NCBI GenBank assembly: GCA_043800695.1
Contig: JAZDMU010000048.1
Coordinates: 4,003 to 68,002, forward strand
From: Bacteroidota bacterium
GTDB lineage: Bacteria; Bacteroidota; Bacteroidia; Bacteroidales; VadinHA17
DNA: 64,000 nucleotides
Direction: 5' to 3'
Part shown: piece by piece, positions 7,181-18,956 of the stretch
Layout of the letters: every line of letters begins with the position of its first letter
How positions within the stretch are numbered: the stretch's first letter is position 1
Notes under the pieces: generated by a model
What the model was told of the DNA's origin: nothing
Database searches by the model: none
The model's input: the letters and a program-made list of their open reading frames with translations, nothing else
Program-made: the position numbers and the translations under genes

Positions 7181-8173
7181 ATGGGACGTTATGTAACATT
7201 ATTCACCGGTCAGTGGGCTGACCTGCCTCTTGAGGAGGTGTGCCGGAAAGCAAAGTCGTTCGGATATGACGGACTTGAACTTGCATGCTGGGGTGATCAT
7301 TTTGAGGTTAATATAGCGAATGACGCCTACTGCAGGGCAAAGCGGAAACTGCTTGACAAATACGGGTTGAAGGTGTTTGCGATTTCCAGCCATCTTGTGG
7401 GGCAGGCAGTTGCAGACAGGATCGACGAGCGTCACAAAAGCATACTCCCTGCATATGTGTGGGGTGACGGCGATCCTGAAGGAGTAAGAAAAAGAGCCGC
7501 GGAAGAGATGATAAAAACCGGTGAAGCTGCAAAGCGTCTTGGCGTTTCTGTTGTCAACGGATTCACGGGCAGCCCGATCTGGCACCTGGTTTATTCCTTT
7601 CCTCCTGTTCCATCGAAAATGATTGAGGACGGATACAGGGAGTTCGCCAGAAGATGGAAGCCAATACTTGATGCTTACAAGAAACTGGGAATAAGGTTCG
7701 GACTTGAAGTGCATCCTACAGAAATAGCTTTCGATATATTTTCTGCAGGTAAAGCCCTGAAAGCCCTGAACAATCATCCGTCCTTCGGATTCAACTACGA
7801 TCCATCACACTTCGGATACCAGGGAGTTGACTATGTAGGGTTCATCCACACTTTTGCCGACAGGATATTCCACGTGCACATGAAGGACTCCGGGTGGTCA
7901 GACATCCCGGTTGAGGCCGGCGTTTTCGGAGGACACACCGAGTTCGGTACAAAAGGTCGTTACTGGGATTTCAGGAGCCCGGGGCGCGGTAATATAAACT
8001 TTGAGGAAATTATCCGGGCGTTAAACCGGATCGGTTATAAGGGTCCTCTATCGGTTGAATGGGAAGATAGCGGAATGGACCGTGAACATGGGGCCAGGGA
8101 GGCATGCGATTTTGTAAAAGCTGTCGATTTTGCTCCGTCCGACATTGCGTTTGATTCAGCATTCGAAAAATAG
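7181..8173 (+). CDS. Sugar phosphate isomerase/epimerase (xylose-isomerase-like TIM barrel)
   Basis: 330 aa. Pattern [13 protein letters not shown] ... GLEVHP ... HVHMKD ... SVEWED is typical of AP-endonuclease-2/xylose-isomerase-like TIM barrels. Confidence 0.8.
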
Positions 8174-8180
8174 AAACCAT

Positions 8181-9314
8181 ATGAAAAAAATTAAACTCGG
8201 AATGATCGGCGGCGGTATTGGAGCATTCATTGGTGATGCTCACCGGCGTGCTTCGCGCATCTGCAATGAATTTGAACTTGTTGGCGGTGTTTTTGATGCT
8301 GACTATGCCAGAAGCAAGGAATTTGCAATCAGGGAAGGCATAAACCTTAACCGCTGTTATAACAGTGTTGATTCTCTTATCAAAGGGGAACTTGCATTAC
8401 CAGCAAAAGAGAGAATGGAGGTTGTGGCAATTGTTACACCAAATTCTCTCCACTTCCCTTTTGCAAAAAAATTCCTGAATAACGGGTTTCATCTTATCTG
8501 TGAAAAACCCATGACCATCACGGTTAAGGAGGCACTTGACCTGGAAAAGCTGGTGGCAAAAAGCAAGCTTACTTTTGCCCTTACACACACCTACACAGGC
8601 TACCCGATGATAAGGCAGATGAGAGACATGTTAGCAAAAGGCACTCTCGGAACTATTCAGCGTATTGACGCTCAGTACTACCAGGGGTGGATCAATGCCA
8701 TCATACACGGTACCGGCAGCCGCATCACAGGAGTATGGAGGCTCGATCCGAAATATGCCGGCGCAAGCAGCTGTATGGGAGATATAGGGATACATGCCTT
8801 CAACCTTATTGAATATACTACCGGATTAGAAATCAAAGAGGTTTTATCGGATCTGAACCCGGTCAAGGAAGGCGTGAAACTCGATCTTGACGGAACGGTG
8901 CTTCTGAGGTTCAGCAAGAAGTTGAAAGGAGTGATAAGATCAAGCCAGGTGTGCGCCGGGGAGGAGAACAATCTTACGATAGCTGTATATGGATCAAAAG
9001 GCAGTCTTAAATGGGGACAGGAGAATCCGAATTACCTGTACCTGATAAGCGACTCGGAGCCGATGAAGGTGCTGAAACCGGCTCACGGATACAACGGCAG
9101 GATGGCGGAAGAGGGGCACACGATGCCGGCAGGACATCCGGAGGGGATCTACGAGGCGCTGGCCAACATATATAAAGGTGCGGCTAAATCAATAAGGAAG
9201 GAAAAATTCATTCCCGGAGAGTTTCCGACGGTTCATGACGGTGTACGCGGAATGAAATTCATCCACGCAGTCGTTAACTCGAATGCAAAGGGTAACGTCT
9301 GGATGAAAGTATAA
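8181..9314 (+). CDS. Gfo/Idh/MocA-family oxidoreductase (cytoplasmic, no signal peptide)
   Basis: The ORF track starts at 8130. The in-frame ATG at 8181 gives MKKIKLGMIGGGIGAFIG, the Rossmann N-terminus typical of the family; EKP motif (ICEKPM). A start at 8130 would overlap the upstream gene. Confidence 0.85.
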   Translation: MKKIKLGMIGGGIGAFIGDAHRRASRICNEFELVGGVFDADYARSKEFAIREGINLNRCYNSVDSLIKGELALPAKERMEVVAIVTPNSLHFPFAKKFLNNGFHLICEKPMTITVKEALDLEKLVAKSKLTFALTHTYTGYPMIRQMRDMLAKGTLGTIQRIDAQYYQGWINAIIHGTGSRITGVWRLDPKYAGASSCMGDIGIHAFNLIEYTTGLEIKEVLSDLNPVKEGVKLDLDGTVLLRFSKKLKGVIRSSQVCAGEENNLTIAVYGSKGSLKWGQENPNYLYLISDSEPMKVLKPAHGYNGRMAEEGHTMPAGHPEGIYEALANIYKGAAKSIRKEKFIPGEFPTVHDGVRGMKFIHAVVNSNAKGNVWMKV

Positions 9315-9690: not shown

Positions 9691-11616
9691 TTATTTATCT
9701 TTTTCAGCCATTATTTTATCAAGTTCAACATACGCATCATAGTACTTCCGGTTAATACCTAAAAGCTTTTTGTAATAATCTGCCGCAACATCCATTTTGC
9801 CCTGAAATTTTGCAATATTGCCCAGATACATAAGCACAACCTCAGATTCCGGGTTTATCTCCAGGGCTCTTTTCAAAACGGAATCTGCTTCTGCATACTG
9901 TCCGTCATTGATTAATGCCCGTGCAAAATTATAAAAAATCATTTCATCATCATTAACAATTTTGAGAGCATTCCTGAACAATCTTATCGCATCATCGTTC
10001 CTCCCCTCTTCAAGTGCCAGATAACCGCGATAATCATCCCTGGTTTTTCTTTCAAGCACAGCACACAAAGGCACGCTGTCGGCATAAACGATATGCATGG
10101 CATCATCCGGAGGCCACTTTTCATTTTTGAGCATGAAGGGGGTGATATACCTGTTGGTTATTATTGCATAATCCCAGTCGTTCATACTCCGTTCCTCATT
10201 TCTGACAGAAGATGTACGGATACCGGGAAGATCCCGGAACTGCCATGCCACTGAATATGTGGCCGCTGCCAGGGCTGAATCTATTTTTTTTTCTGACAGA
10301 TGGTTTATCAGCCATTCAGATGCTTCCGTCCGGGCTGTGTAATAATAATCGGTTTCATAATTGCCATGAGCTCCTTTTACCCCTCCGACCAGCTGATTAT
10401 AATATATATAGGAATAAGGGAAATTCACTATCATGAATCTGACCGGATGAAAAGAAAGAATTAACACCGTAACAGTCAATAATATTCTTAATATACTGAC
10501 TTTCTGTATATTAAATGCCGTGCTATACCCCTCTGCAGCCAGAAGGACTATCAGCGGATAAAGAAAAAGGAACTGCCGCCATGAACTGTACAGGTTTGAT
10601 TTTTGAATCATCACAAAGACCAGCGGGAATATTATCGTGAAAGCAATCAATCCATATAAAACAGCTTTTCTGTCCTTAAAAATCTTCCTCATGAAGACCA
10701 GAAAGATTATTAACCCCGCTGTCACTGCAAGTGGGACTGTGATAGCCATTGATTTCGGGATGTAATACCATGGCATGTGATCGGACCACATTACATTACC
10801 TTCAAAGATCTGCCGGAATGTTGATGGGAACTGAGCCATAATACGATAGGATCCGATCACATTACGCATGGGGTCCTGAAGTGCATACGGCCAAAGCAGG
10901 ATACTCATGAAAAATGCAGCAATCGTCACAAACAATAATACGACCAGTGTTTTCCACTCCTCTTTTCCGACCAGCCTCTCTTTTTGCAAAATGGAATAAA
11001 TCAAGCCAGTGATAAAGAAGAAAAAAAGATAACAGATAAGTAGTAAGCCTGTCGCCCTTATGCTCAATGCAACTGCTATGCTTATTGTAAGAAGTATGGC
11101 ACCGGCAAACGTATTCCTCTTTTTGGAAAAAATGAATTTCAGGCTGAAAAAAACTGAAGCGACATATCCAAGCGCAAACGGGACGTCTTTCAGATTATTC
11201 ATGGCATGGCCAATGAATGTGGGTGACACGGCAAAGAGGAACAATACCATAAACCCTGATCCGTAACCCGACAGCCAGACTGCAAAAAGTGCTGTTAATA
11301 AAATAACACTCCAGCCGGCAAGTGCACTCATTATGTGCCGGAACCTGTAAACATCATCTATTCTGAGCCAATGGATGAGTATGGTAGCAATGTTATCGAA
11401 CGACTGGCCGTAGTATTTAAGATGCGAATCCGGCGTATGAAGCGCTGACCTGTCAGTCCCTCCGGAGGCAAAAAAATCAAATACAGCTTCAGAGTGCCCG
11501 TAATGAAGCACCTCATCGCATGAGATACCGGCAAACCTGCTGGAGTAAACCATTGTCACCAGCAGCAAGAGAGCAACGGTATAGAAGATATATTTCAGAC
11601 TTTTCTGTGACATCAC
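9691..11616 (-). CDS. GT-C fold (GT39/PMT/ArnT-like) polyprenyl-phosphate-sugar-dependent glycosyltransferase with C-terminal TPR repeats
   Basis: 641 aa with about 11 predicted TM helices. A CDE (Asp-Glu) motif lies in the first extracytoplasmic loop directly after TM1. The C-terminal roughly 130 aa forms 3-4 TPRs (..AIRLFRNALKI.., ..YAEADSVLKRALEINP.., ..AADYYKKLLGIN..). Confidence 0.65.
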   Translation of the reverse strand: MMSQKSLKYIFYTVALLLLVTMVYSSRFAGISCDEVLHYGHSEAVFDFFASGGTDRSALHTPDSHLKYYGQSFDNIATILIHWLRIDDVYRFRHIMSALAGWSVILLTALFAVWLSGYGSGFMVLFLFAVSPTFIGHAMNNLKDVPFALGYVASVFFSLKFIFSKKRNTFAGAILLTISIAVALSIRATGLLLICYLFFFFITGLIYSILQKERLVGKEEWKTLVVLLFVTIAAFFMSILLWPYALQDPMRNVIGSYRIMAQFPSTFRQIFEGNVMWSDHMPWYYIPKSMAITVPLAVTAGLIIFLVFMRKIFKDRKAVLYGLIAFTIIFPLVFVMIQKSNLYSSWRQFLFLYPLIVLLAAEGYSTAFNIQKVSILRILLTVTVLILSFHPVRFMIVNFPYSYIYYNQLVGGVKGAHGNYETDYYYTARTEASEWLINHLSEKKIDSALAAATYSVAWQFRDLPGIRTSSVRNEERSMNDWDYAIITNRYITPFMLKNEKWPPDDAMHIVYADSVPLCAVLERKTRDDYRGYLALEEGRNDDAIRLFRNALKIVNDDEMIFYNFARALINDGQYAEADSVLKRALEINPESEVVLMYLGNIAKFQGKMDVAADYYKKLLGINRKYYDAYVELDKIMAEKDK

Positions 11617-12542
11617 TGCCCGGAATCGCCGCCGAAGAATTTCCTCACAAAATAGACCGGACGGTTCTGGGATTCCTTGTAGTTCCTGAAGACGTACTCA
11701 CCGAGCACTCCCAGGAACACGAGCTGTACTGAGCCGAGAAAATAGATGCTCAGCAATATCGATGACCATCCCGGAACGGCGATCCCGGTGGCCTTTGCTA
11801 TAAGTACATAAATGCCTGCCCCCAGGAATACTACTGTTCCTATCGTGCCCAGTATGAGGCAGAAACGTATCGGAAACCTTGAAAAGGAAAAAATGGCATC
11901 CGAAGCAAGAATGAAGAGTTTTCTGAAAGTCATCTTCGGCTTGCCCCGGTACCTTTCCTCCCTTACATACTCTACTTCACCATGCCTGAAACCGATATAG
12001 CTTCTCATCCCGGGCAGGTAGCGCACTTTTTCCTTCATCGCAAGAAGGGCATCAACGGCAGCCCGTTTCATCACCGAGTAATTACCGTAATTTCCCATTG
12101 AGCTTATATCGCCTATATTCCTGAAAACAGAATGGAAAATTGATGCGTACAGGTCACGGCTCCTGATGCCTTTCCTGCCTGTCCGCTTTGCACTCACAAT
12201 ATCAAAACCCTCATTAACAATCCTGTGATACATAGCTGAAAGCAGTTCCGGCGGATCCTGAAGGTCGCCGTCCATCATGGCAACGATGTCGCCGGTGCAA
12301 TGCTCAAGTCCGGCAGTGTATGCGGCCTGGTGCCCGAAGTTCTTTGAAAGCGACAATAATTTGATCCTCTTGTTTGTTTTCCTGGCAGCAAGTATAGATC
12401 CAACGCTATTATCCGTACTTCCGTCATCGACAAATATTATCTCATATTCATTTGAAAATGATTCTATTGCGGCAACGGTGCGTTTTAAGAGCTCATCAAC
12501 GAGCTTCTCTTCATTGAAAACCGGGATAACAAGGGAGAACAT
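11613..12542 (-). CDS. GT2 polyprenyl-phosphate glycosyltransferase (ArnC/GtrB/Dpm1-like)
   Basis: 309 aa. VIPVFNEE, FVDDGSTD and MDGDLQDPPE motifs plus two C-terminal TM helices. 4-nt overlap with the downstream GT-C gene. Confidence 0.85.
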   Translation of the reverse strand: MFSLVIPVFNEEKLVDELLKRTVAAIESFSNEYEIIFVDDGSTDNSVGSILAARKTNKRIKLLSLSKNFGHQAAYTAGLEHCTGDIVAMMDGDLQDPPELLSAMYHRIVNEGFDIVSAKRTGRKGIRSRDLYASIFHSVFRNIGDISSMGNYGNYSVMKRAAVDALLAMKEKVRYLPGMRSYIGFRHGEVEYVREERYRGKPKMTFRKLFILASDAIFSFSRFPIRFCLILGTIGTVVFLGAGIYVLIAKATGIAVPGWSSILLSIYFLGSVQLVFLGVLGEYVFRNYKESQNRPVYFVRKFFGGDSGQ

Positions 12543-13636
12543 TACTGTAACCTGTCTAACGCAAACTCAACATCATCAGCCAGCTCCTGAACGGATGAGA
12601 GGGCTTCAATGGCGGGAAGACAATTCTCCGAGCCCATCCAGCTGATCTCTCTCAGAAGAAGTTTTTTTGCTTCTGTCGCAGCCTTATCATCTTCAAGAAC
12701 CTTCACCATTTTCTTCTCGATTTCCAGTAGTTTCTCTTCATCGCCCTCAGCCTTTCGTATCATGCTTTGCAGGCATGCGAAATACTTTGTGCTTTTACTG
12801 ATATCATAATCCCTGATGTTCTCAAATATCTCATCGTATGTAATCTCTGTGAAGTCAGGTCTGAGGACAGGACCGGCCGCTGTAGGGAAGTCAAAAGGCA
12901 CTTCCCGGGTCACAGTCCCCGATGCTGCCCATTCAGCGCCTCGCTGCAATGTCACTATAAACCCTGCACAATGAAGTGCATTGTTCTCATTATCATCAGG
13001 AGTTCCGATCATCGTTGCGAATATTCTCCCCTTCCCAAGATTCCACGCTATCATTACCGGCTCCCTTCTGCCGCTGCCAGAATATGCAGTATCGGAATAA
13101 GCAGTGGCAAGAACTTGTGATCCTTCACCCGTAATTTGCAAACCATTCCGGATCAGATCAGCCTGATGAACCCATCTCACAGGCAATCCTTCAGTTACAG
13201 GATGATTCGTAATGGCATTCCTGATCTCGAAATCGTGCCGTTTCGTAACGGACACTGTCTCTGAAGAGACAGCAACGCGATCACTTAACGAATTATAAAT
13301 TACAAGGCCTCCCCCTTCCTTTACAAATTCAGTCAATGCACTAACAGTGCCTTCATTCAGCGGATCATCGTAATAGTTTGAAACAACCAGGTCGTAATCA
13401 GCAAAAGCCGGAGAAAAAGATGACATATCCCCGCCCTTTTCCGGTGATATAATAATATCCGTTTTAAACAAACCTGTTAAATCAAGTATTTGTTTCGCCG
13501 ACTCCGAGCTGACCTTCCAGTTATATTCACTTTGTCCTGTGATTATCAGTGCTTTATACTTAGGGGCTTTCTTGCATGCAGGGATTATGGAAATCAGTGC
13601 GGCTGCAAGCAGGTATATAAAATGTAGTTTTCTCAT
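12542..13636 (-). CDS. ThuA-domain lipoprotein with a C-terminal HEAT-like helical region
   Basis: The internal ATG at 13636 gives MRKLHFIYLLAAALISIIPAC (lipobox) and avoids overlap with the upstream gene. ALIITGQSEYNWK ... VKEGGGLVIYNS resembles ThuA-like class-I amidotransferase-fold proteins. The last roughly 100 aa are helical repeats. Confidence 0.65.
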   Translation of the reverse strand: MRKLHFIYLLAAALISIIPACKKAPKYKALIITGQSEYNWKVSSESAKQILDLTGLFKTDIIISPEKGGDMSSFSPAFADYDLVVSNYYDDPLNEGTVSALTEFVKEGGGLVIYNSLSDRVAVSSETVSVTKRHDFEIRNAITNHPVTEGLPVRWVHQADLIRNGLQITGEGSQVLATAYSDTAYSGSGRREPVMIAWNLGKGRIFATMIGTPDDNENNALHCAGFIVTLQRGAEWAASGTVTREVPFDFPTAAGPVLRPDFTEITYDEIFENIRDYDISKSTKYFACLQSMIRKAEGDEEKLLEIEKKMVKVLEDDKAATEAKKLLLREISWMGSENCLPAIEALSSVQELADDVEFALDRLQ

Positions 13637-13647
13637 TTCTCTGTATA

Positions 13648-14961
13648 TTAAACTGTTGGGAGAGTCCATGGTTTGCGGTAAGGCCTGCTAAGAAGCCTGG
13701 CTGCCCTTTCATTTCCGGTAATAGTCTCGGTGACTGGGTCCCAGTGGATCGTTTGCCCGGTCGTCATTGCGATTTCGCCGAGAAGAGCAACGGAAATGGC
13801 GCGGTAAGCAGGTTCAATGGGCGCAATTGCCGGAGTACTGGTGCGGACGCTATCGACAAAGTTCTGCCAGTGGTTATCGCTCCTGTAAAGATGTATCTCA
13901 TTCTCCCCTATAACCTCGTCAAGGATTTTCGGATCTGAAGCAGTCAGGATGTTTCCCCTGTCGGTATGCACCCACCCCAGGTCGCCATGCCAGGTGGTGC
14001 CCATTCCGAGCTTCAACCTTGACGCATTGGCAACTCTCATTTCGATCCCGTTGGCATATTTGCATAGAAAATCATACTCAACCGGGACATTGTATAAACC
14101 TTCTGCCGGGTATACTCCGGTTCCTGAAATCTCGACAGGACCTGTATATTCCAGTCCGGCGCCCCAGTTGGCGATATCGATATGGTGCCCTGCCCAGTCG
14201 GTGAGCTGGCCTCCTGAATAATCGAGTATCCACCTCCAGTCCCAGTGCGACACTCCCCTGTACGGAACTTTCGGAGCCGGGCCGAGCCACATTTCCCAGT
14301 TCAGTTCAGGGGGAACCTCCTGCACAGGGGGAGTACCGATACCTCTGCCTCCGTCGGGAAGCCCTACTTCAATATATTTGATATTCCCTATCCTTCCGTT
14401 GATCGCCAACTCAGCTCCCCTGCGGAAATGAGGCTGCGACCGCTGCCAGCTTCCCGTCTGCCAGATGATGTTGTTCTTTTTAACCGCGGCCACTATTGTC
14501 TGCCCGTCATTGATGGTCCGGCAGATGGGCTTTTCACCATAAACATTAAGCTTTTTGTTTATGGCTTCGGTATAGATTATCCCGTGCCAGTGGTCAGGAA
14601 GGGCTATTGATACAGCATCAAGCTTTTCCTTTTCGAGGAGGTCGCGGAAATCACCGTAGGTGCGGCAGTCGCTGTTTTTGTTTGCAGCATCAACCGTCTC
14701 CTTTGCGCCTGCAAGATGTTTTGAATCGACATCGCATACTGCCACGAACTGCACTGCTTTCTTCAGATCCAGGAAGTCGCGCATATTAGACATACCCTGC
14801 GAGCCTGTTCCGATCGCTCCCATCACCACCCGGTCGCCCGGGGGAAGTTTGCCTCCCATTCCAAGTGCAGAAGCGGGAATTATGTTCGGAATAAAAAATG
14901 CCCCGGCAGCTGCAACGGCCGAGCGCTTTACAAAGATTCGTCTGGTTGTTTTTTGTGCCAT
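13648..14961 (-). CDS. Tat-exported Gfo/Idh/MocA-family oxidoreductase
   Basis: 437 aa. Twin-arginine signal MAQKTTRRIFVKRSAVAAAGAF, Rossmann GAIGTGSQG, and EKP motif (YGEKPI). Confidence 0.85.
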   Translation of the reverse strand: MAQKTTRRIFVKRSAVAAAGAFFIPNIIPASALGMGGKLPPGDRVVMGAIGTGSQGMSNMRDFLDLKKAVQFVAVCDVDSKHLAGAKETVDAANKNSDCRTYGDFRDLLEKEKLDAVSIALPDHWHGIIYTEAINKKLNVYGEKPICRTINDGQTIVAAVKKNNIIWQTGSWQRSQPHFRRGAELAINGRIGNIKYIEVGLPDGGRGIGTPPVQEVPPELNWEMWLGPAPKVPYRGVSHWDWRWILDYSGGQLTDWAGHHIDIANWGAGLEYTGPVEISGTGVYPAEGLYNVPVEYDFLCKYANGIEMRVANASRLKLGMGTTWHGDLGWVHTDRGNILTASDPKILDEVIGENEIHLYRSDNHWQNFVDSVRTSTPAIAPIEPAYRAISVALLGEIAMTTGQTIHWDPVTETITGNERAARLLSRPYRKPWTLPTV

Positions 14962-14966
14962 ATATT

Positions 14967-16337
14967 CTATATTATTTGTCCTTTAAATATAGGTTTTACA
15001 TTGCTCAATACAGGGGTACCTGATACCGGCGTTTCAAACACCATGTCAACAGGTCCGAATTCAATCTTTGACGGCCCCAGGTCCATATCCGACTTGAAAA
15101 TCTCATCCCATGTTATTGCACGCCCCGTATATGCCGCTGTCCTTCCCATGATGGCAGTCAGTGTGGAGAGAGCGGTCTGCTCAGCCTCATTGATATAATT
15201 GCCTGTCCTGATGGCCCATACAAGATGCATATGCTCCTGGACATAGGGCGGGATCACCGTCTGATTCATCCGGGTCCCGTTCTCGTCAAGGGGATACTCA
15301 AATTTCCATTTTACGTTCCCCTCCGTGTCCCATATTGTATTCTGGCAATTGGTATATCCTTCTGTTCCCATTACAAGCTCACCGGTCCCGTTTGTACAGC
15401 TGTCGATCTGCCTGCACATGCTGTGCGAACTCACGCCGCTTCCGTAATCATAATCGATGCTGAAGAAATCGTACTGGTCGCCAGTCACTCTTCTGTGACG
15501 GCCTCCGTAACCTATCGCTCTTTCAGGATATTTACCTATGAACCAGTTTATTACATCGATATTGTGAACATGAGTATCAAGTATATGGTCGCCGCAGAGC
15601 CAGCAGAAATTGTTCCAGTTGCGTATCATGTACTCCATGTCGTTCCATCCCGGTTCACGCTCCCTGAACCATACATGGTCCTGGTTCCACCATGCTTTGG
15701 CCGATGTGATCCTTCCAATTGCTCCTCCTGCAACCTGCCTGAATGTATCAATATAATCCTCCTGGTGCCTTCGCTGCGTCCCGGTGACAACATTCAGACC
15801 TATGGCTTCAGCTTTCCTGCCCGAAGTAATTATTGAACGGATGCCGACAGAGTCAACCGCGACTGGTTTCTCCATGAAAACATGCTTTCCCCTGGTAACA
15901 GCTTCAAGGAAATGATCGGGACGGAACTGAGGGGGTGTTGCCAGCAGTACTACATCAAGATCAGGCAGTGCCATCAGCTTTTTGTACCCGTCAAATCCTG
16001 CAAAGCAATTCTCTGCAGGGATTGGAAGATTGAATGATGCGAATCGCTCACGGCAGGCATCGATCTTATCCTGAAAGAGGTCGGAAAGTGCAACAATCTC
16101 CAGGTCAGGGCCCGAGCTTATGAAATTGATCGCTGCACCGGTTCCCCTGGCTCCTGCGCCGACAAGGCCCGCCCTCAGCTTCTTCCCTGAAGGCGCTCCA
16201 TTCAGTATCGGGGGAAGCTTAAGCTCCGTGTTATCAGCTTTCCTTTTGCATCCCGAAGCCACCATACCCGCTCCGGCAATCCCGATCCCGGCCAGCGCTG
16301 CAGCCCCGATGAATTTTCTCCTGTCAATGTTTTTCAT
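14967..16337 (-). CDS. Tat-exported Gfo/Idh/MocA-family oxidoreductase (paralogue)
   Basis: 456 aa. Twin-arginine signal MKNIDRRKFIGAAALAGIG, Rossmann GLVGAGARG, and EKP motif (FMEKPV). 5 nt upstream of the next gene. Confidence 0.85.
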   Translation of the reverse strand: MKNIDRRKFIGAAALAGIGIAGAGMVASGCKRKADNTELKLPPILNGAPSGKKLRAGLVGAGARGTGAAINFISSGPDLEIVALSDLFQDKIDACRERFASFNLPIPAENCFAGFDGYKKLMALPDLDVVLLATPPQFRPDHFLEAVTRGKHVFMEKPVAVDSVGIRSIITSGRKAEAIGLNVVTGTQRRHQEDYIDTFRQVAGGAIGRITSAKAWWNQDHVWFREREPGWNDMEYMIRNWNNFCWLCGDHILDTHVHNIDVINWFIGKYPERAIGYGGRHRRVTGDQYDFFSIDYDYGSGVSSHSMCRQIDSCTNGTGELVMGTEGYTNCQNTIWDTEGNVKWKFEYPLDENGTRMNQTVIPPYVQEHMHLVWAIRTGNYINEAEQTALSTLTAIMGRTAAYTGRAITWDEIFKSDMDLGPSKIEFGPVDMVFETPVSGTPVLSNVKPIFKGQII

Positions 16338-16360: not shown

Positions 16361-16387
16361 CCCACCCCTAACCCCTCCAGGGAGGGG
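16361..16387. repeat. G/C-rich hairpin element (CCCCTCC AG GGAGGGG) preceded by CCCACCCCTAA
   Basis: Palindrome read directly. Lies 18 nt after the stop of the cytochrome-FGE gene. On the minus strand the element is followed by a T6 run, so it may act as a weak terminator or attenuator inside the operon. Confidence 0.7.
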
Positions 16388-16404: not shown

Positions 16405-17940
16405 TTATTTTATAACCGAACTGTCAACCTCACATACTACTCTGAAACCCACGTCGATGCAATCTGAATACCACCAGATGCTCTTTGGCATCTGGGGATC
16501 GGTAACCAGCCACTCTTTCGTTTTAGTATAATCGCGTGCCGCGCTTCGGAGATCCCCGGCATCGCTTCTGAACGAGCCTCCCCTGATTACATGTTCCTGT
16601 CCCTTTGCCGGTCCACGCGGGTTTATCCCGGTTGAATCAGTGGAATAGAAATCAGGAGCATAGAAATCGGAACAGAATTCAGCCACATTACCCGGCATGT
16701 TTTTAAGGCCAAACGGATTTCCCTGCACTGATGAGGGCTCTTCAGTCTTCGCGTTGCTGTTAAGGCTGTAGATCACCCTTGAATCTATTATGGCAGTATC
16801 GGGACGGAACAGCTTCCTGAGAAATCCGTCAGAAGAATAGTCCCCTGCATCACCCTCAAAGAAATAAGGAGTCTCCGTACCTCCCCGGCATGCATACTCC
16901 CACTCAGCCTCAGTGGGCAGGCGATATTTTTTTCCTGTAATCCTCGACAGCCATTCGCAGTAAACATTTGCGGCATACCATGTCATCGTAATTGCCGGTC
17001 TTGACCCCTTACCCCAGCCCTGGTCAGGCGCGCCCCAGGGTGGAGTTGGTCCGCTGATAGCATCCACATCTTTCAGGTTTAGAAGCTGTGTTACTTTCGT
17101 CCCGGGCGGCGAACCTGTTTCCCTGAAGAAAGTCATATATTCATCCCATGATACCTCTGCCCTGCCGATCCAGAGCGGTGAAAGAGTAACTGTCCTGACA
17201 GGTCCCTCATCAGGATCCCGGAAAGGCTCATCATCAGGACTTCCCATGCGGAAAGTTCCTCCGGGGATTGCAATCATCTCAAATGAAACCCTCGTCCCGG
17301 GGATCATTTCAGTAAAGTTTTTAAATTCAGCGATTTTTGCAGGTTCACCAAATGGAGGCTCATTTGATGTAACAGTCACACCAAAGTTTGTATCGTGTTC
17401 ATGCAAAACTGCATTCTTATCATAATGTCCTACAGTCAGATGGCAGTTAATACAATTCAGGGGATCCCTGCTTTCAGTATAGAACAGGTGTGCGTTGCCG
17501 CCGTTGACGGATAGAGTTACCGGGAACAGATTTTCGTGGCAGTCAATGCATGATTTCTCATATACTATTTTTTTTGCATACTCAAGAAGCCTCTTTTTTC
17601 CCCATTCAATTTCAGAGGTGTCCTTAAAAAGATAGCCGTACAGATCCTTGAGTCCGTGTTTTGCCTTGGCAACCAGATAGCCCTCTCCTTCAGGAGGAAG
17701 ATGGCATTGGGCGCAGTGGACAATATTACCTGACGCATTATTGTAATGTGATGAGAGCTTCCAGCATTGGTCGGCGTGCGGGTGAACATGGCATGACATG
17801 CATGATTTGTCGGTTGAGGTGGCTTTAATCAGTTTTCCCCCTGAATAAAAAAGCACTGCACATACCAGCAAGCCGGAAATAAAAAACCAGGCTCTGGCTC
17901 TATGCCCCGCAGCAGGCCTTCTTCTAACATTATAATTCAT
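16405..17940 (-). CDS. NapC/NirT-type membrane-anchored tetrahaem cytochrome c fused to an FGE/SUMF1-like domain
   Basis: 511 aa. N-terminal TM helix (WFFISGLLVCAVLFYSGG). Four CxxCH sites (CMSCH, CAQCH, CIDCH, CINCH) within the first roughly 175 aa. Then FGE-sulfatase-family motifs IPGGTFRMGS, YRLPTEAEWEYACRGG, GNVAEF, VIRGGSFRS. Confidence 0.75.
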   Translation of the reverse strand: MNYNVRRRPAAGHRARAWFFISGLLVCAVLFYSGGKLIKATSTDKSCMSCHVHPHADQCWKLSSHYNNASGNIVHCAQCHLPPEGEGYLVAKAKHGLKDLYGYLFKDTSEIEWGKKRLLEYAKKIVYEKSCIDCHENLFPVTLSVNGGNAHLFYTESRDPLNCINCHLTVGHYDKNAVLHEHDTNFGVTVTSNEPPFGEPAKIAEFKNFTEMIPGTRVSFEMIAIPGGTFRMGSPDDEPFRDPDEGPVRTVTLSPLWIGRAEVSWDEYMTFFRETGSPPGTKVTQLLNLKDVDAISGPTPPWGAPDQGWGKGSRPAITMTWYAANVYCEWLSRITGKKYRLPTEAEWEYACRGGTETPYFFEGDAGDYSSDGFLRKLFRPDTAIIDSRVIYSLNSNAKTEEPSSVQGNPFGLKNMPGNVAEFCSDFYAPDFYSTDSTGINPRGPAKGQEHVIRGGSFRSDAGDLRSAARDYTKTKEWLVTDPQMPKSIWWYSDCIDVGFRVVCEVDSSVIK

Positions 17941-18032: not shown

Positions 18033-18956
18033 TCAGAATCTTTTTGTATATCCGTGACAGTACGGAGTCTTTCCGTTGTTGAAGTAATAATCCTGGTGGT
18101 AATCCTCGGCTTCAAAGAATTCTGATGCTCCGGTAACTGCCGTTGCAATACGGTATTCCTTGTCAGTCAGTATCTTAAGGTTCTTATCGATGAGTTTTTT
18201 CTGTTCATCATTCATATAGAATATCTCCGACCGGTACTGGTCTCCGATATCGGGACCCTGTCCTCCAGCCTGTGTGGGATCGTGAATCTCGAGAAACAGC
18301 CTGAGAAGCTTTTCATAGTTTGTCTTTTCGGGATCATAAATGATCCTGACCGCTTCCGCATGGCCTGTCTTACCTGTACACACTTCCTTATATGACGGAT
18401 TCTTTACATGGCCTCCCGTGTATCCTGAAGTCACTGAAATGACCCCGGGTTCTTTCTGCATGTAATATTCGACACCCCAAAAACAGCCCCCTGCAAATAT
18501 TGCAGTCCCGTATCTGCCTTCCTCCACTATTGCAGGCACAAAGTCGAGTGAAACTGAATTAACGCAGTGGCGGATGTTCTTCGGGGTCATTCTTTCTCCT
18601 GTGAAAACATGGCCGAGATGGGCTCCGCATGAAGCACATATTATTTCAGTCCTCATTCCGTCGGGATCAGGGAATCTCTTTACTGCTCCTTTTATTTCAT
18701 CATCAAAACTTGGCCAGCCGCAGTCTGACTCAAATTTCGACGACGAATAATAGAGGGCGGCGCCGCATTTTTTGCACAGGTAAGTGCCTTTCTGCCTGCT
18801 GTCGGTAAACTTGCCCGTAAAGGGAGCTTCTGTTCCCTTGTTATTAATGACATGCGCTTCAGCCTTGCTAAGGTTGTTGAGCGGAAGTTTTTCCTGGGCG
18901 AATGATTTTGCTGTCATTGTAAGTAATATTGACAATATTAAAATTATGAACCTCAT
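18033..18956 (-). CDS. msrAB: Secreted bifunctional methionine sulfoxide reductase MsrB-MsrA
   Basis: 307 aa. Signal peptide (..AKSFA-QE). MsrB zinc and catalytic motifs (CKKCGAALY, CGWPSF, CASCGAHLGHVF, RHCVNS), then the MsrA motif GGCFWGVE. Confidence 0.9.
   Translation of the reverse strand: MRFIILILSILLTMTAKSFAQEKLPLNNLSKAEAHVINNKGTEAPFTGKFTDSRQKGTYLCKKCGAALYYSSSKFESDCGWPSFDDEIKGAVKRFPDPDGMRTEIICASCGAHLGHVFTGERMTPKNIRHCVNSVSLDFVPAIVEEGRYGTAIFAGGCFWGVEYYMQKEPGVISVTSGYTGGHVKNPSYKEVCTGKTGHAEAVRIIYDPEKTNYEKLLRLFLEIHDPTQAGGQGPDIGDQYRSEIFYMNDEQKKLIDKNLKILTDKEYRIATAVTGASEFFEAEDYHQDYYFNNGKTPYCHGYTKRF

Follow-up and report, generated by a model that had tools for sequence, protein, structure and literature searches.

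The window analysed here is a 64,000-nucleotide stretch of contig JAZDMU010000048.1 from a Bacteroidota bacterium (Bacteroidales). On its minus strand, positions 16405–17940 form a single uninterrupted open reading frame (ORF) with an ATG start, encoding a 511-residue protein, hereafter the fusion, in which a transmembrane (TM) anchor and a NapC/NirT-type tetrahaem domain are followed by a domain of the FGE-sulfatase fold. The original prediction, made from the letters of the DNA, had described this ORF as it was found, except that the minus strand had gone unstated. The parts of the fusion are:

16405–17940, minus strand: whole ORF, 511 residues, comprising TM anchor, NapC/NirT tetrahaem domain, linker and FGE-like domain
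17836–17892, minus strand: N-terminal membrane anchor, approximately residues 17–35, after the basic stretch RRRPAAGHRAR (from sequence, and a single helix over residues 11–41 in the AlphaFold2 (AF2) model)
17422–17889, minus strand: NapC/NirT domain (Cytochrom_NNT, PF03264), residues 18–173 (Pfam E = 2.6e-21)
17788–17802, minus strand: haem 1 motif CMSCH (C47–H51), followed by the invariant H53
17701–17715, minus strand: haem 2 motif CAQCH (C76–H80)
17644–17667, minus strand: invariant K92...D99, aligned with NrfH K82...D89 (alignment to 2j7a_C)
17536–17550, minus strand: haem 3 motif CIDCH (C131–H135)
17440–17454, minus strand: haem 4 motif CINCH (C163–H167), followed by the invariant G171-H172
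17281–17421, minus strand: variable linker, residues 174–220 (pLDDT <50 at residues 169–190; alignment columns without consensus)
16426–17280, minus strand: FGE-sulfatase-fold domain of a distinct subfamily, residues 221 to ~505 (Pfam E = 7.7e-42)
17044–17064, minus strand: predicted ApbE flavinylation motif D293-A-I-S-G-P-T299 in a subfamily-specific loop, with flavin mononucleotide (FMN) predicted on T299
16549–16566, minus strand: sites of the two FGE catalytic cysteines, now S459 and L464 (alignment to Thermomonospora curvata FGE, 6s07)
16471–16500, minus strand: subfamily signature D481-P-Q-x-P-K-S-x-W-W490, invariant, of low confidence in the model

The two halves of the fusion protein

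Both halves held up in the profile searches: PF03264 matched with 76.6 bits against a cutoff of 24.1, PF03781 (FGE-sulfatase) matched residues 221–471 with 144 bits against a cutoff of 23.3, and these were the only Pfam domains in the protein. A frameshift or mis-assembly, or two genes joined through a missed stop, was rejected, since full-length collinear homologues number in the hundreds. In the protein database there were at least 120 clusters (90% identity) at 67–100% identity, of ~510 residues and with both Pfam domains, among them P0001, labelled 'MAG Bacteroidota bacterium' and 100% identical to the fusion, and a second search yielded ~100 further full-length homologues at ~45–55% identity. 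Labels among the more distant homologues included Acidobacteriota, Terriglobia and candidate division KSB1. More than 531 stretches, a lower bound, were confirmed in species-representative genomes; 80 of these loci were retained, all from metagenome-assembled genomes of Bacteroidota (Bacteroidales, Prolixibacteraceae and others). Database annotations of these proteins read 'SUMF1/EgtB/PvdO family nonheme iron enzyme', 'sulfatase modifying factor 1' or 'cytochrome c nitrite reductase small subunit'.

The N-terminal anchor consists of a basic stretch followed by the hydrophobic segment AWFFISGLLVCAVLFYSGG, and the topology is presumably N-in, C-out. The four CxxCH motifs begin at residues 47, 76, 131 and 163. 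Residue conservation was scored over 70 diverse homologues of the fusion, in which 11 of the 12 cysteines and histidines of these motifs were invariant and the remaining one, C131, was kept in at least 90%. Invariant as well were four histidines outside the motifs (H53, H65, H151 and H172), which by sequence would be enough for bis-His ligation of the haems. K92 and D99, also invariant, are by alignment the counterparts of Desulfovibrio NrfH K82 and D89, which we take to line the menaquinol site at haem 1 of the NrfH structure. Judged by these residues, the haem half appears to retain the hallmarks of a quinone-interacting NapC/NirT module.

The fusion shares a single N-terminal TM helix, four CxxCH motifs and a PF03264 score above threshold with NrfH, CymA and NapC, and with cM552 and ImoA, which have been proposed to be quinone reductases; with NrfH it also shares the conserved Lys and Asp aligned with the menaquinol site. 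Unlike NrfH, where haem 1 has the motif CxxCHxM, the fusion has CxxCHxH. It scores below all NCBIfam equivalog cutoffs for this half (NrfH, 66 bits against 134; TorC, 51 against 478; NapC, 37–45 against 349), adds a C-terminal FGE-like domain of ~300 residues, and has an NAD(P)-type dehydrogenase as its partner rather than a multihaem or molybdo-enzyme, with electrons probably flowing into the quinone pool. By domain criteria it is a NapC/NirT protein and not an orthologue of NrfH, NapC or TorC, and its neighbour is a Gfo/Idh/MocA gene, with no cognate reductase. When the haem half was searched against the PDB by sequence, the sole match was a marginal one to NrfH (E = 0.074). TorC/DorC likewise combine a tetrahaem membrane module with a fused C-terminal domain facing a Tat-exported partner, and TorC is described as anchoring TorA (PMC11727998). 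The C-terminal domain of TorC is, however, a monohaem cytochrome, whereas the fusion ends in an FGE fold predicted to bind FMN covalently.

In the C-terminal half, the FGE signatures IPGGTFRMGS, RLPTEAEWEYACRGG and RGGSFRS were all present. The catalytic cysteines of FGE had been said to be missing, and the alignment to T. curvata FGE agreed: GGSFRS of the fusion aligned with GGSFLC, so that the first catalytic cysteine is replaced by Ser459 and the second, five positions on, by Leu464. Ser459 was conserved in at least 90% of the 70 diverse homologues, and no conserved cysteine was found in the FGE-like half among these aligned sequences. The domain thus has the fold of FGE/SUMF1, but the two copper-binding catalytic cysteines are gone and there is no sulfatase link, judged by single-query BLAST over ~177 loci.

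Foldseek gave PvdO (5hha) as the best match (TM-score 0.75–0.77, normalised to the target), followed by FGEs (E ~1e-16), and other cysteine-less FGE folds were among the structural matches (PorK, EgtB, TDE variable protein and ToxD). PvdO, a cysteine-less periplasmic FGE fold with the NCBIfam name 'dihydropyoverdine dehydrogenase', is the closest structure and acts in a periplasmic oxidation, for which we know of no oxidising partner. PvdO was also the best NCBIfam match of this half, yet the fusion differs from it in scoring far below the PvdO cutoff (112 bits against 500) and in having neighbours unrelated to pyoverdine; PvdO lacks the flavinylation loop in the alignment, and in these data it showed no partnership with a Gfo protein or a cytochrome. 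The scores for GldK (96.7 bits against 350) and GldJ (42 against 458) were also below their cutoffs. In place of the lipoprotein signal of GldK/PorK and GldJ the fusion has a TM-anchored cytochrome, and it does not qualify as a member of the type IX secretion system.

The subfamily to which the FGE-like domain belongs is defined by two invariant elements, the loop D-A-x-[ST]-G-[AP]-T-P-P-[YW]-G-x-P-D-Q-G-W-G and the C-terminal D-P-Q-x-P-K-S-x-W-W, the latter of which served as the subfamily marker in our motif and metagenome scans. The AF2 model of the fusion (mean pLDDT 79, pTM 0.78) shows a confident FGE fold except in two parts, the loop at residues 278–314 and the D-P-Q-x-P segment, whose low confidence would fit surfaces that need a cofactor or a partner. 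The linker between the halves ends in a conserved lead-in, F-x-x-[YF]-T-E-x-I-P-G-T; its variable stretch, modelled with low confidence at residues 169–190, suggests a tether rather than a rigid joint.

Members of the subfamily also occur outside the NapC/NirT fusion. Some stand alone, with ~345 residues and a signal peptide, and in the following loci and positions the motif-bearing domain has separately been joined with PSCyt1 ('Planctomycete cytochrome C'), present as one domain or two:

L122:6215–7972: PSCyt1–FGE-like fusion (88.9 bits)
L134:6647–7829: PSCyt1–FGE-like fusion (38.5 bits)
L132:1264–2583: PSCyt1–FGE-like fusion
L147:5864–7957: PSCyt1–FGE-like fusion

Because it is joined to two unrelated haem c modules, NapC/NirT and PSCyt1, the FGE-like domain most likely exchanges electrons with haem. 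In a further arrangement, four proteins of ~724 residues (P0228, P0249, P0261 and P0264) carry the subfamily domain at the C-terminus of a ~415-residue N-terminal region, which in P0249 has a weak FG-GAP-like match; the loop motif of P0228 is DAVTRPS. A protein with a weak FG-GAP_3 match also lies near the fusion–Gfo pair in one Acidobacteriota locus (L088).

A constant dehydrogenase partner

The gene next to the fusion in the window encodes a Gfo/Idh/MocA oxidoreductase, referred to here as Gfo456:

14967–16337, minus strand: Gfo/Idh/MocA oxidoreductase, 456 residues, with a twin-arginine (Tat) signal and lipobox (RRKF...ASGC), GxGxRG and EKP

ORFs were called in all fetched loci and then clustered, and the pairing counts derive from these clusters. 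A Gfo456-type gene of ~445–458 residues lay directly downstream of the fusion on the same strand in 79 of the 84 genome loci, usually after a gap of 4–30 nucleotides, and the five loci without such a neighbour were contig ends or broken genes. The 79 partners belong to one subtype, being 48–100% identical to the 456-residue protein of the window and ~20% identical to the second Gfo gene of the cluster. In the most distant Bacteroidota loci (~50% identity), the fusion and Gfo456 were the only genes conserved. The pair also occurs outside the Bacteroidota, in three Acidobacteriota loci (L088, L095 and L096) and one KSB1 locus (L089), and in L094, of unassigned lineage, with two peptidase genes inserted between its members; all 12 full-length fusions from metagenomes had a Gfo456-type neighbour. 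The pairing of the two genes is obligate. The survey of domain architectures and neighbours suggested by the original prediction has thus shown a widespread fusion with an adjacent Tat-exported Gfo/Idh/MocA gene as its constant partner.

The motifs of the partner were nearly always kept (n = 79: twin-arginine Tat signal, 78; lipobox, 72; GxGxRG, 78; EKP, 79), from which Gfo456 looks like an active dehydrogenase that is exported in the folded state. It is probably exported with its cofactor already bound, by analogy with Zymomonas GFOR, a periplasmic Gfo/Idh/MocA protein that is exported with tightly bound NADP and works by a ping-pong mechanism. Unlike the route proposed below, GFOR recycles its cofactor with a second sugar and not with a protein-bound flavin. 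The best solved relatives of Gfo456 score 38–48 bits, with weak similarity to inositol dehydrogenases and DgpA. We also considered a GH109-like NAD-dependent glycosidase, which was not supported (2ixa, 23.8 bits).

Several observations tie the dehydrogenase to the FGE-like domain and not to the cytochrome. A Gfo456-type gene comes after the stand-alone gene of the subfamily in L090, in the Gemmataceae loci L092 and L093 and in many metagenome loci; in L091 a Gfo/Idh/MocA gene follows the stand-alone gene, and in L086 the Gfo that follows is of a different subtype. In the metagenome scan, where generic FGE ORFs provided an internal control, 26 of 35 FGE ORFs with the loop motif had a Gfo456-type neighbour, compared with 2 of 35 without it (Fisher p = 3e-9). 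An AP_endonuc_2-like gene lay within two genes of 7 of 35 ORFs with the motif and of none of the 35 without (Fisher p = 0.011). The Gfo pairing is a property of the FGE-like domain.

A predicted flavinylation loop and its link to apbE

ApbE attaches FMN to the last residue of the motif D-x-x-[S/T]-G-A-[S/T] (2025 review, PMC12052999). The subfamily-specific loop of the fusion, which has pLDDT <50 in the AF2 model, contains DAISGPT and matches this motif at six of seven positions. Among the 120 closest clusters, the canonical [ST]-G-A-T was found in 113 and S-G-P-T in the other 7, while other lineages have T-G-P-T or [ST]-R-P-T. G297 and T299 were invariant in the 70 homologues, and D293 was kept in at least 90%. 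The conservation of the motif is solid, and no ApbE-type motif was found in the other proteins of the module. We infer from the sequence that the loop is an ApbE flavinylation motif, and covalent FMN on T299 is our prediction.

Outside the Bacteroidota, an apbE gene lies immediately beside the subfamily FGE-like gene in at least 13 loci, in three arrangements:

L088, L095, L096 (Acidobacteriota-type): apbE, fusion and Gfo on one strand
L091–L093 (Gemmataceae): apbE divergent
L114, L130 (metagenome): apbE on the same strand, upstream
L110, L116, L140 (metagenome): apbE divergent
L132, L145 (metagenome): apbE downstream

Every apbE detected among the 646 ORFs of L086–L176 adjoins a subfamily FGE-like gene, wherever the neighbour is visible. 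The linkage does not reflect one inherited arrangement, because the ApbE proteins of these loci are 35–100% identical to one another. Together, the motif and the apbE adjacency in other phyla suggest that the FGE-like domain probably has a redox function of its own. The subfamily resembles the known ApbE-flavinylated extracytosolic proteins (NqrC, RnfG, NosR, PplA, the FMN_bind domains of fumarate and urocanate reductases, DUF2271 and DUF3570) in carrying the motif, or in the window a match to it at six of seven positions, on an extracytosolic domain, in having apbE in the gene cluster in several lineages outside the Bacteroidota and in being tied to a membrane electron-transfer module. It differs from them in that the motif sits on an FGE-sulfatase fold, and in that many members, that of the window included, have Pro (or Arg-Pro) in place of Ala (or Gly-Ala).

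Adjacency of apbE was seen just at those loci where the motif is the Pro variant ([ST]-[GR]-P-[TS]) and never at canonical G-A-T loci; a dedicated ApbE paralogue may serve the variant motif, but this pattern of adjacency is confounded by phylogeny. In the Gemmataceae loci L091–L093 (e.g., L092:4288–5794), a conserved protein of 393 residues and another protein of 86 residues are encoded beside apbE, opposite the FGE-like/Gfo pair. Neither has a haem motif, a signal peptide or a Pfam domain, and with no haem motifs they were rejected as a substitute for the cytochrome.

Surrounding genes and the proposed electron route

Two further genes of the cluster follow Gfo456 in the window:

13648–14961, minus strand: second Tat-signal Gfo/Idh/MocA protein, 437 residues, resembling the BT_2158 glycoside 3-dehydrogenase (8tdf, 8tdh)
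12542–13669, minus strand: ThuA-like lipoprotein, 375 residues

The second Gfo gene was found at position +2 in 46 loci and the ThuA-like gene in 38, and the genes that recur nearby are ThuA, BT_2158-like Gfo, 3keto-disac_hyd and AP_endonuc_2-like genes. The presence of the second Gfo, the ThuA gene and the GT2 and TPR membrane genes described next varies between loci. At 9691–12542 on the minus strand, a GT2 protein resembling polyprenyl-phosphate sugar synthases (PgfS and ArnC matches) is followed by a 640-residue multi-TM, GT-C-like protein with C-terminal TPRs; this pair, possibly a system for periplasmic glycosylation, follows the module in ~57–61 of the 84 Bacteroidota loci. Just past the cluster, at 8130–9314 on the plus strand, lies a third Gfo/Idh/MocA gene (394 residues), with weak matches to levoglucosan and xylose dehydrogenases. 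Upstream of the fusion, at 18033–18956 on the minus strand, lies the gene for a methionine sulfoxide reductase in which MsrB and MsrA are fused and whose Sec-type signal peptide predicts a periplasmic location. In 24 Prolixibacteraceae-type loci (e.g., L034:166–2724), the gene directly upstream on the same strand encodes an 852-residue protein with a Laminin_G_3 domain (concanavalin-like lectin or glucanase). From the PFOR, GH9 and GH3 genes in the window, the host looks like an anaerobic glycan degrader.

The reading that we favour, with confidence somewhat better than even, is that the fusion serves as the electron-transfer subunit, anchored in the membrane, of a periplasmic dehydrogenase that is encoded by two genes and wired to the quinone pool through FMN and haems. 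Gfo456, a Tat-exported lipoprotein that arrives folded and probably with NAD(P) bound, would dock on the FGE-like domain and oxidise a hydroxyl group of a periplasmic substrate, most likely a sugar or a glycoside. Its reduced nicotinamide would then be re-oxidised by an FMN that ApbE has attached covalently to Thr299 on the flexible loop of the FGE-fold domain. The FMN would split the two-electron hydride into one-electron steps, and the electrons would run along haems IV to I of the NapC/NirT domain and reach menaquinone next to the membrane, at the Lys92/Asp99 site. Transfer of electrons from NAD(P)H to haem normally needs a converter between two-electron and one-electron steps, such as a flavin. 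A sugar or glycoside hydroxyl is suggested as the substrate by the AP_endonuc_2, ThuA, BT_2158-like and 3keto-disac_hyd neighbours, together with the similarity of the partner to inositol dehydrogenases and DgpA.

We consider electron flow into the quinone pool to be more likely than flow out of it, because the partner is of the NAD(P) type and because of the redox potentials involved. The label 'quinol dehydrogenase' in the original prediction was right about the NapC/NirT module and may have the direction wrong. Its proposal of a new kind of periplasmic redox or docking module is supported and can now be made more specific. FAD-dependent sugar dehydrogenases, such as the FAD glucoside 3-dehydrogenase, also deliver electrons to quinone by way of a multihaem c subunit. 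Those complexes pair a catalytic flavoprotein with a trihaem subunit of class I, unlike the combination of NAD(P), tethered FMN and NapC-type cytochrome proposed here. Other NapC/NirT proteins have been proposed to act as quinone reductases (ImoA preprint, PMC6295460).

Tentatively, and at a little less than even chances, we would go further and regard the module as a new respiratory dehydrogenase class, in which an FGE-fold, ApbE-flavinylated 'swinging-arm' carrier serves a Tat-exported Gfo/Idh/MocA enzyme and passes electrons on to c-haems and the quinone pool. The tethered FMN would enter the Gfo active site as the second substrate of a ping-pong reaction and re-oxidise permanently bound NAD(P)H. 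The acceptors would be the NapC/NirT haems in Bacteroidota, Acidobacteriota and KSB1, and PSCyt1 or a separate acceptor in Planctomycetota-like lineages. There is a substantial chance that this is indeed a distinct new class of respiratory dehydrogenase.

A number of points weigh against the favoured route. Retention of NAD(P) by Gfo456 and its contact with the FGE-like domain are both suppositions, and with solved relatives scoring 38–48 bits the substrate is a guess. Some of the synteny was conserved among genomes that are themselves related, and oxidation of quinol is the usual activity of NapC/NirT proteins. The window protein has Pro and not Ala before the target Thr, and acceptance of G-P-T or R-P-T by ApbE would have to be supposed; in the fumarate reductase of K. 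pneumoniae, a motif with Ala changed to Val was still ~50% flavinylated (Bertsova et al., in PMC12052999). A tblastn search found no apbE anywhere in the window of 64 kb, nor within 10 kb in the 85 Bacteroidota loci, so the favoured route would depend in this phylum on a housekeeping ApbE encoded at another place in the genome, which is plausible for Bacteroidota with Nqr or Rnf. The FGE fold is not among the known ApbE substrate folds (FMN_bind, NqrB/RnfD, DUF2271 and DUF3570). Two flavinylation surveys make no mention of FGE, sulfatase or formylglycine in their main text, and PF03781/FGE-sulfatase is absent from the accessible portion of the supplements to the eLife flavinylation survey. Finally, the 67-nucleotide gap between the fusion and Gfo456 in the window contains a terminator-like GC hairpin followed by a T-run (16365–16383, minus strand). 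We do not count this hairpin against co-function, because a consensus scan gave no excess of such sites over shuffled sequence and the gap is 4–30 nucleotides in most loci.

The same components could be run in the opposite direction, with menaquinol feeding the haems (and FMN) and the Gfo protein reducing a periplasmic carbonyl or other acceptor, which would amount to a new anaerobic respiratory reductase. The characterised NapC/NirT members (NrfH, CymA and NapC) are mostly quinol dehydrogenases, the K92/D99 site is conserved and the host, with a PFOR gene in the window, looks anaerobic; the fusion–Gfo pairing is neutral on this question. From established potentials, however, transfer from menaquinol (~−75 mV) to FMN or bound NAD(P) (~−200 to −320 mV) would be uphill, and Gfo/Idh/MocA proteins in AP_endonuc_2, ThuA and BT_2158-like neighbourhoods belong to oxidative 3-keto-sugar routes. 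We regard this reversal as unlikely. Improbable, too, is that the FGE-like domain is a cofactor-less docking or lectin-like substrate-binding module, the motif being a mere conserved loop and electrons taking some other route from Gfo to haem IV. Cysteine-less FGE folds are common as scaffolds, as the structural matches PorK, EgtB, TDE variable protein and ToxD illustrate, and a bioRxiv preprint reports FGE-like immunity proteins of the type VI secretion system. The non-canonical G-P-T of the window and the absence of a nearby apbE in the Bacteroidota loci also agree with such a module. Against it, 113 of the 120 closest clusters carry the canonical motif and the target Thr is invariant, and in at least 13 loci, from diverse lineages, apbE adjoins the FGE-like gene and occupies no other position. 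The flavin-like converter normally required between NAD(P)H and haem would also be missing.

Retention of the FGE fold raises the question of O2-independent sulfatase maturation, in which the FGE-like domain would bind S/C-x-P-x-R, the Gfo protein would oxidise Ser to formylglycine and the haems would take up the electrons. Such a conversion is an alcohol-to-aldehyde dehydrogenation and would suit an NAD(P) enzyme, and sulfatase genes do lie near three loci of the subfamily (L088, L093 and L097). We nevertheless disfavour this explanation as very unlikely: sulfatase homologues were found in only 5 of ~177 loci, two of them with generic FGEs (by single-query BLAST, with limited sensitivity), and the recurrent neighbours point to sugar metabolism. 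The MsrB/A gene directly upstream on the same strand, with its Sec signal, could suggest that the fusion feeds electrons to methionine sulfoxide repair, a quinol-driven system analogous to MsrPQ. This we find hardly credible and have rejected, since the linkage is confined to 26 closely related loci and does not extend to Prolixibacteraceae-type loci, to distant Bacteroidota or to loci of Acidobacteriota, KSB1 and Planctomycetota; moreover, MsrA and MsrB run on thiol chemistry and not on haem or flavin donors.

In a literature search we found no characterised example of a NapC/NirT–FGE fusion (the original prediction knew of none either) and, in the open literature that it covered (subscription journals lay outside it), no earlier description of the fusion or of a link of FGE to NapC/NirT, to Gfo/Idh/MocA or, among the matches listed, to ApbE. 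The fusion looks like an undescribed way to wire a periplasmic enzyme to the respiratory quinone pool, in a family that occurs in more than 500 species-level genomes and is currently mis-annotated in the databases. Glycan-degrading Bacteroidota, Planctomycetota and Acidobacteriota are rich in periplasmic Gfo/Idh/MocA oxidoreductases, and the periplasm has no NAD(P) pool; the turnover of these enzymes there is puzzling unless each cycle is redox-neutral. If the favoured route is correct, the FGE fold would join the substrates of ApbE, and cysteine-less FGE-like proteins would gain a concrete cofactor hypothesis. It would also explain how periplasmic NAD(P) enzymes with a locked-in cofactor feed respiration, as a tethered flavin and a haem wire to menaquinone would make true respiratory dehydrogenases of them. 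Oxidation of sugars and glycosides outside the cytoplasm would then be tied directly to energy conservation in anaerobic bacteria of sediments, peat and lakes.

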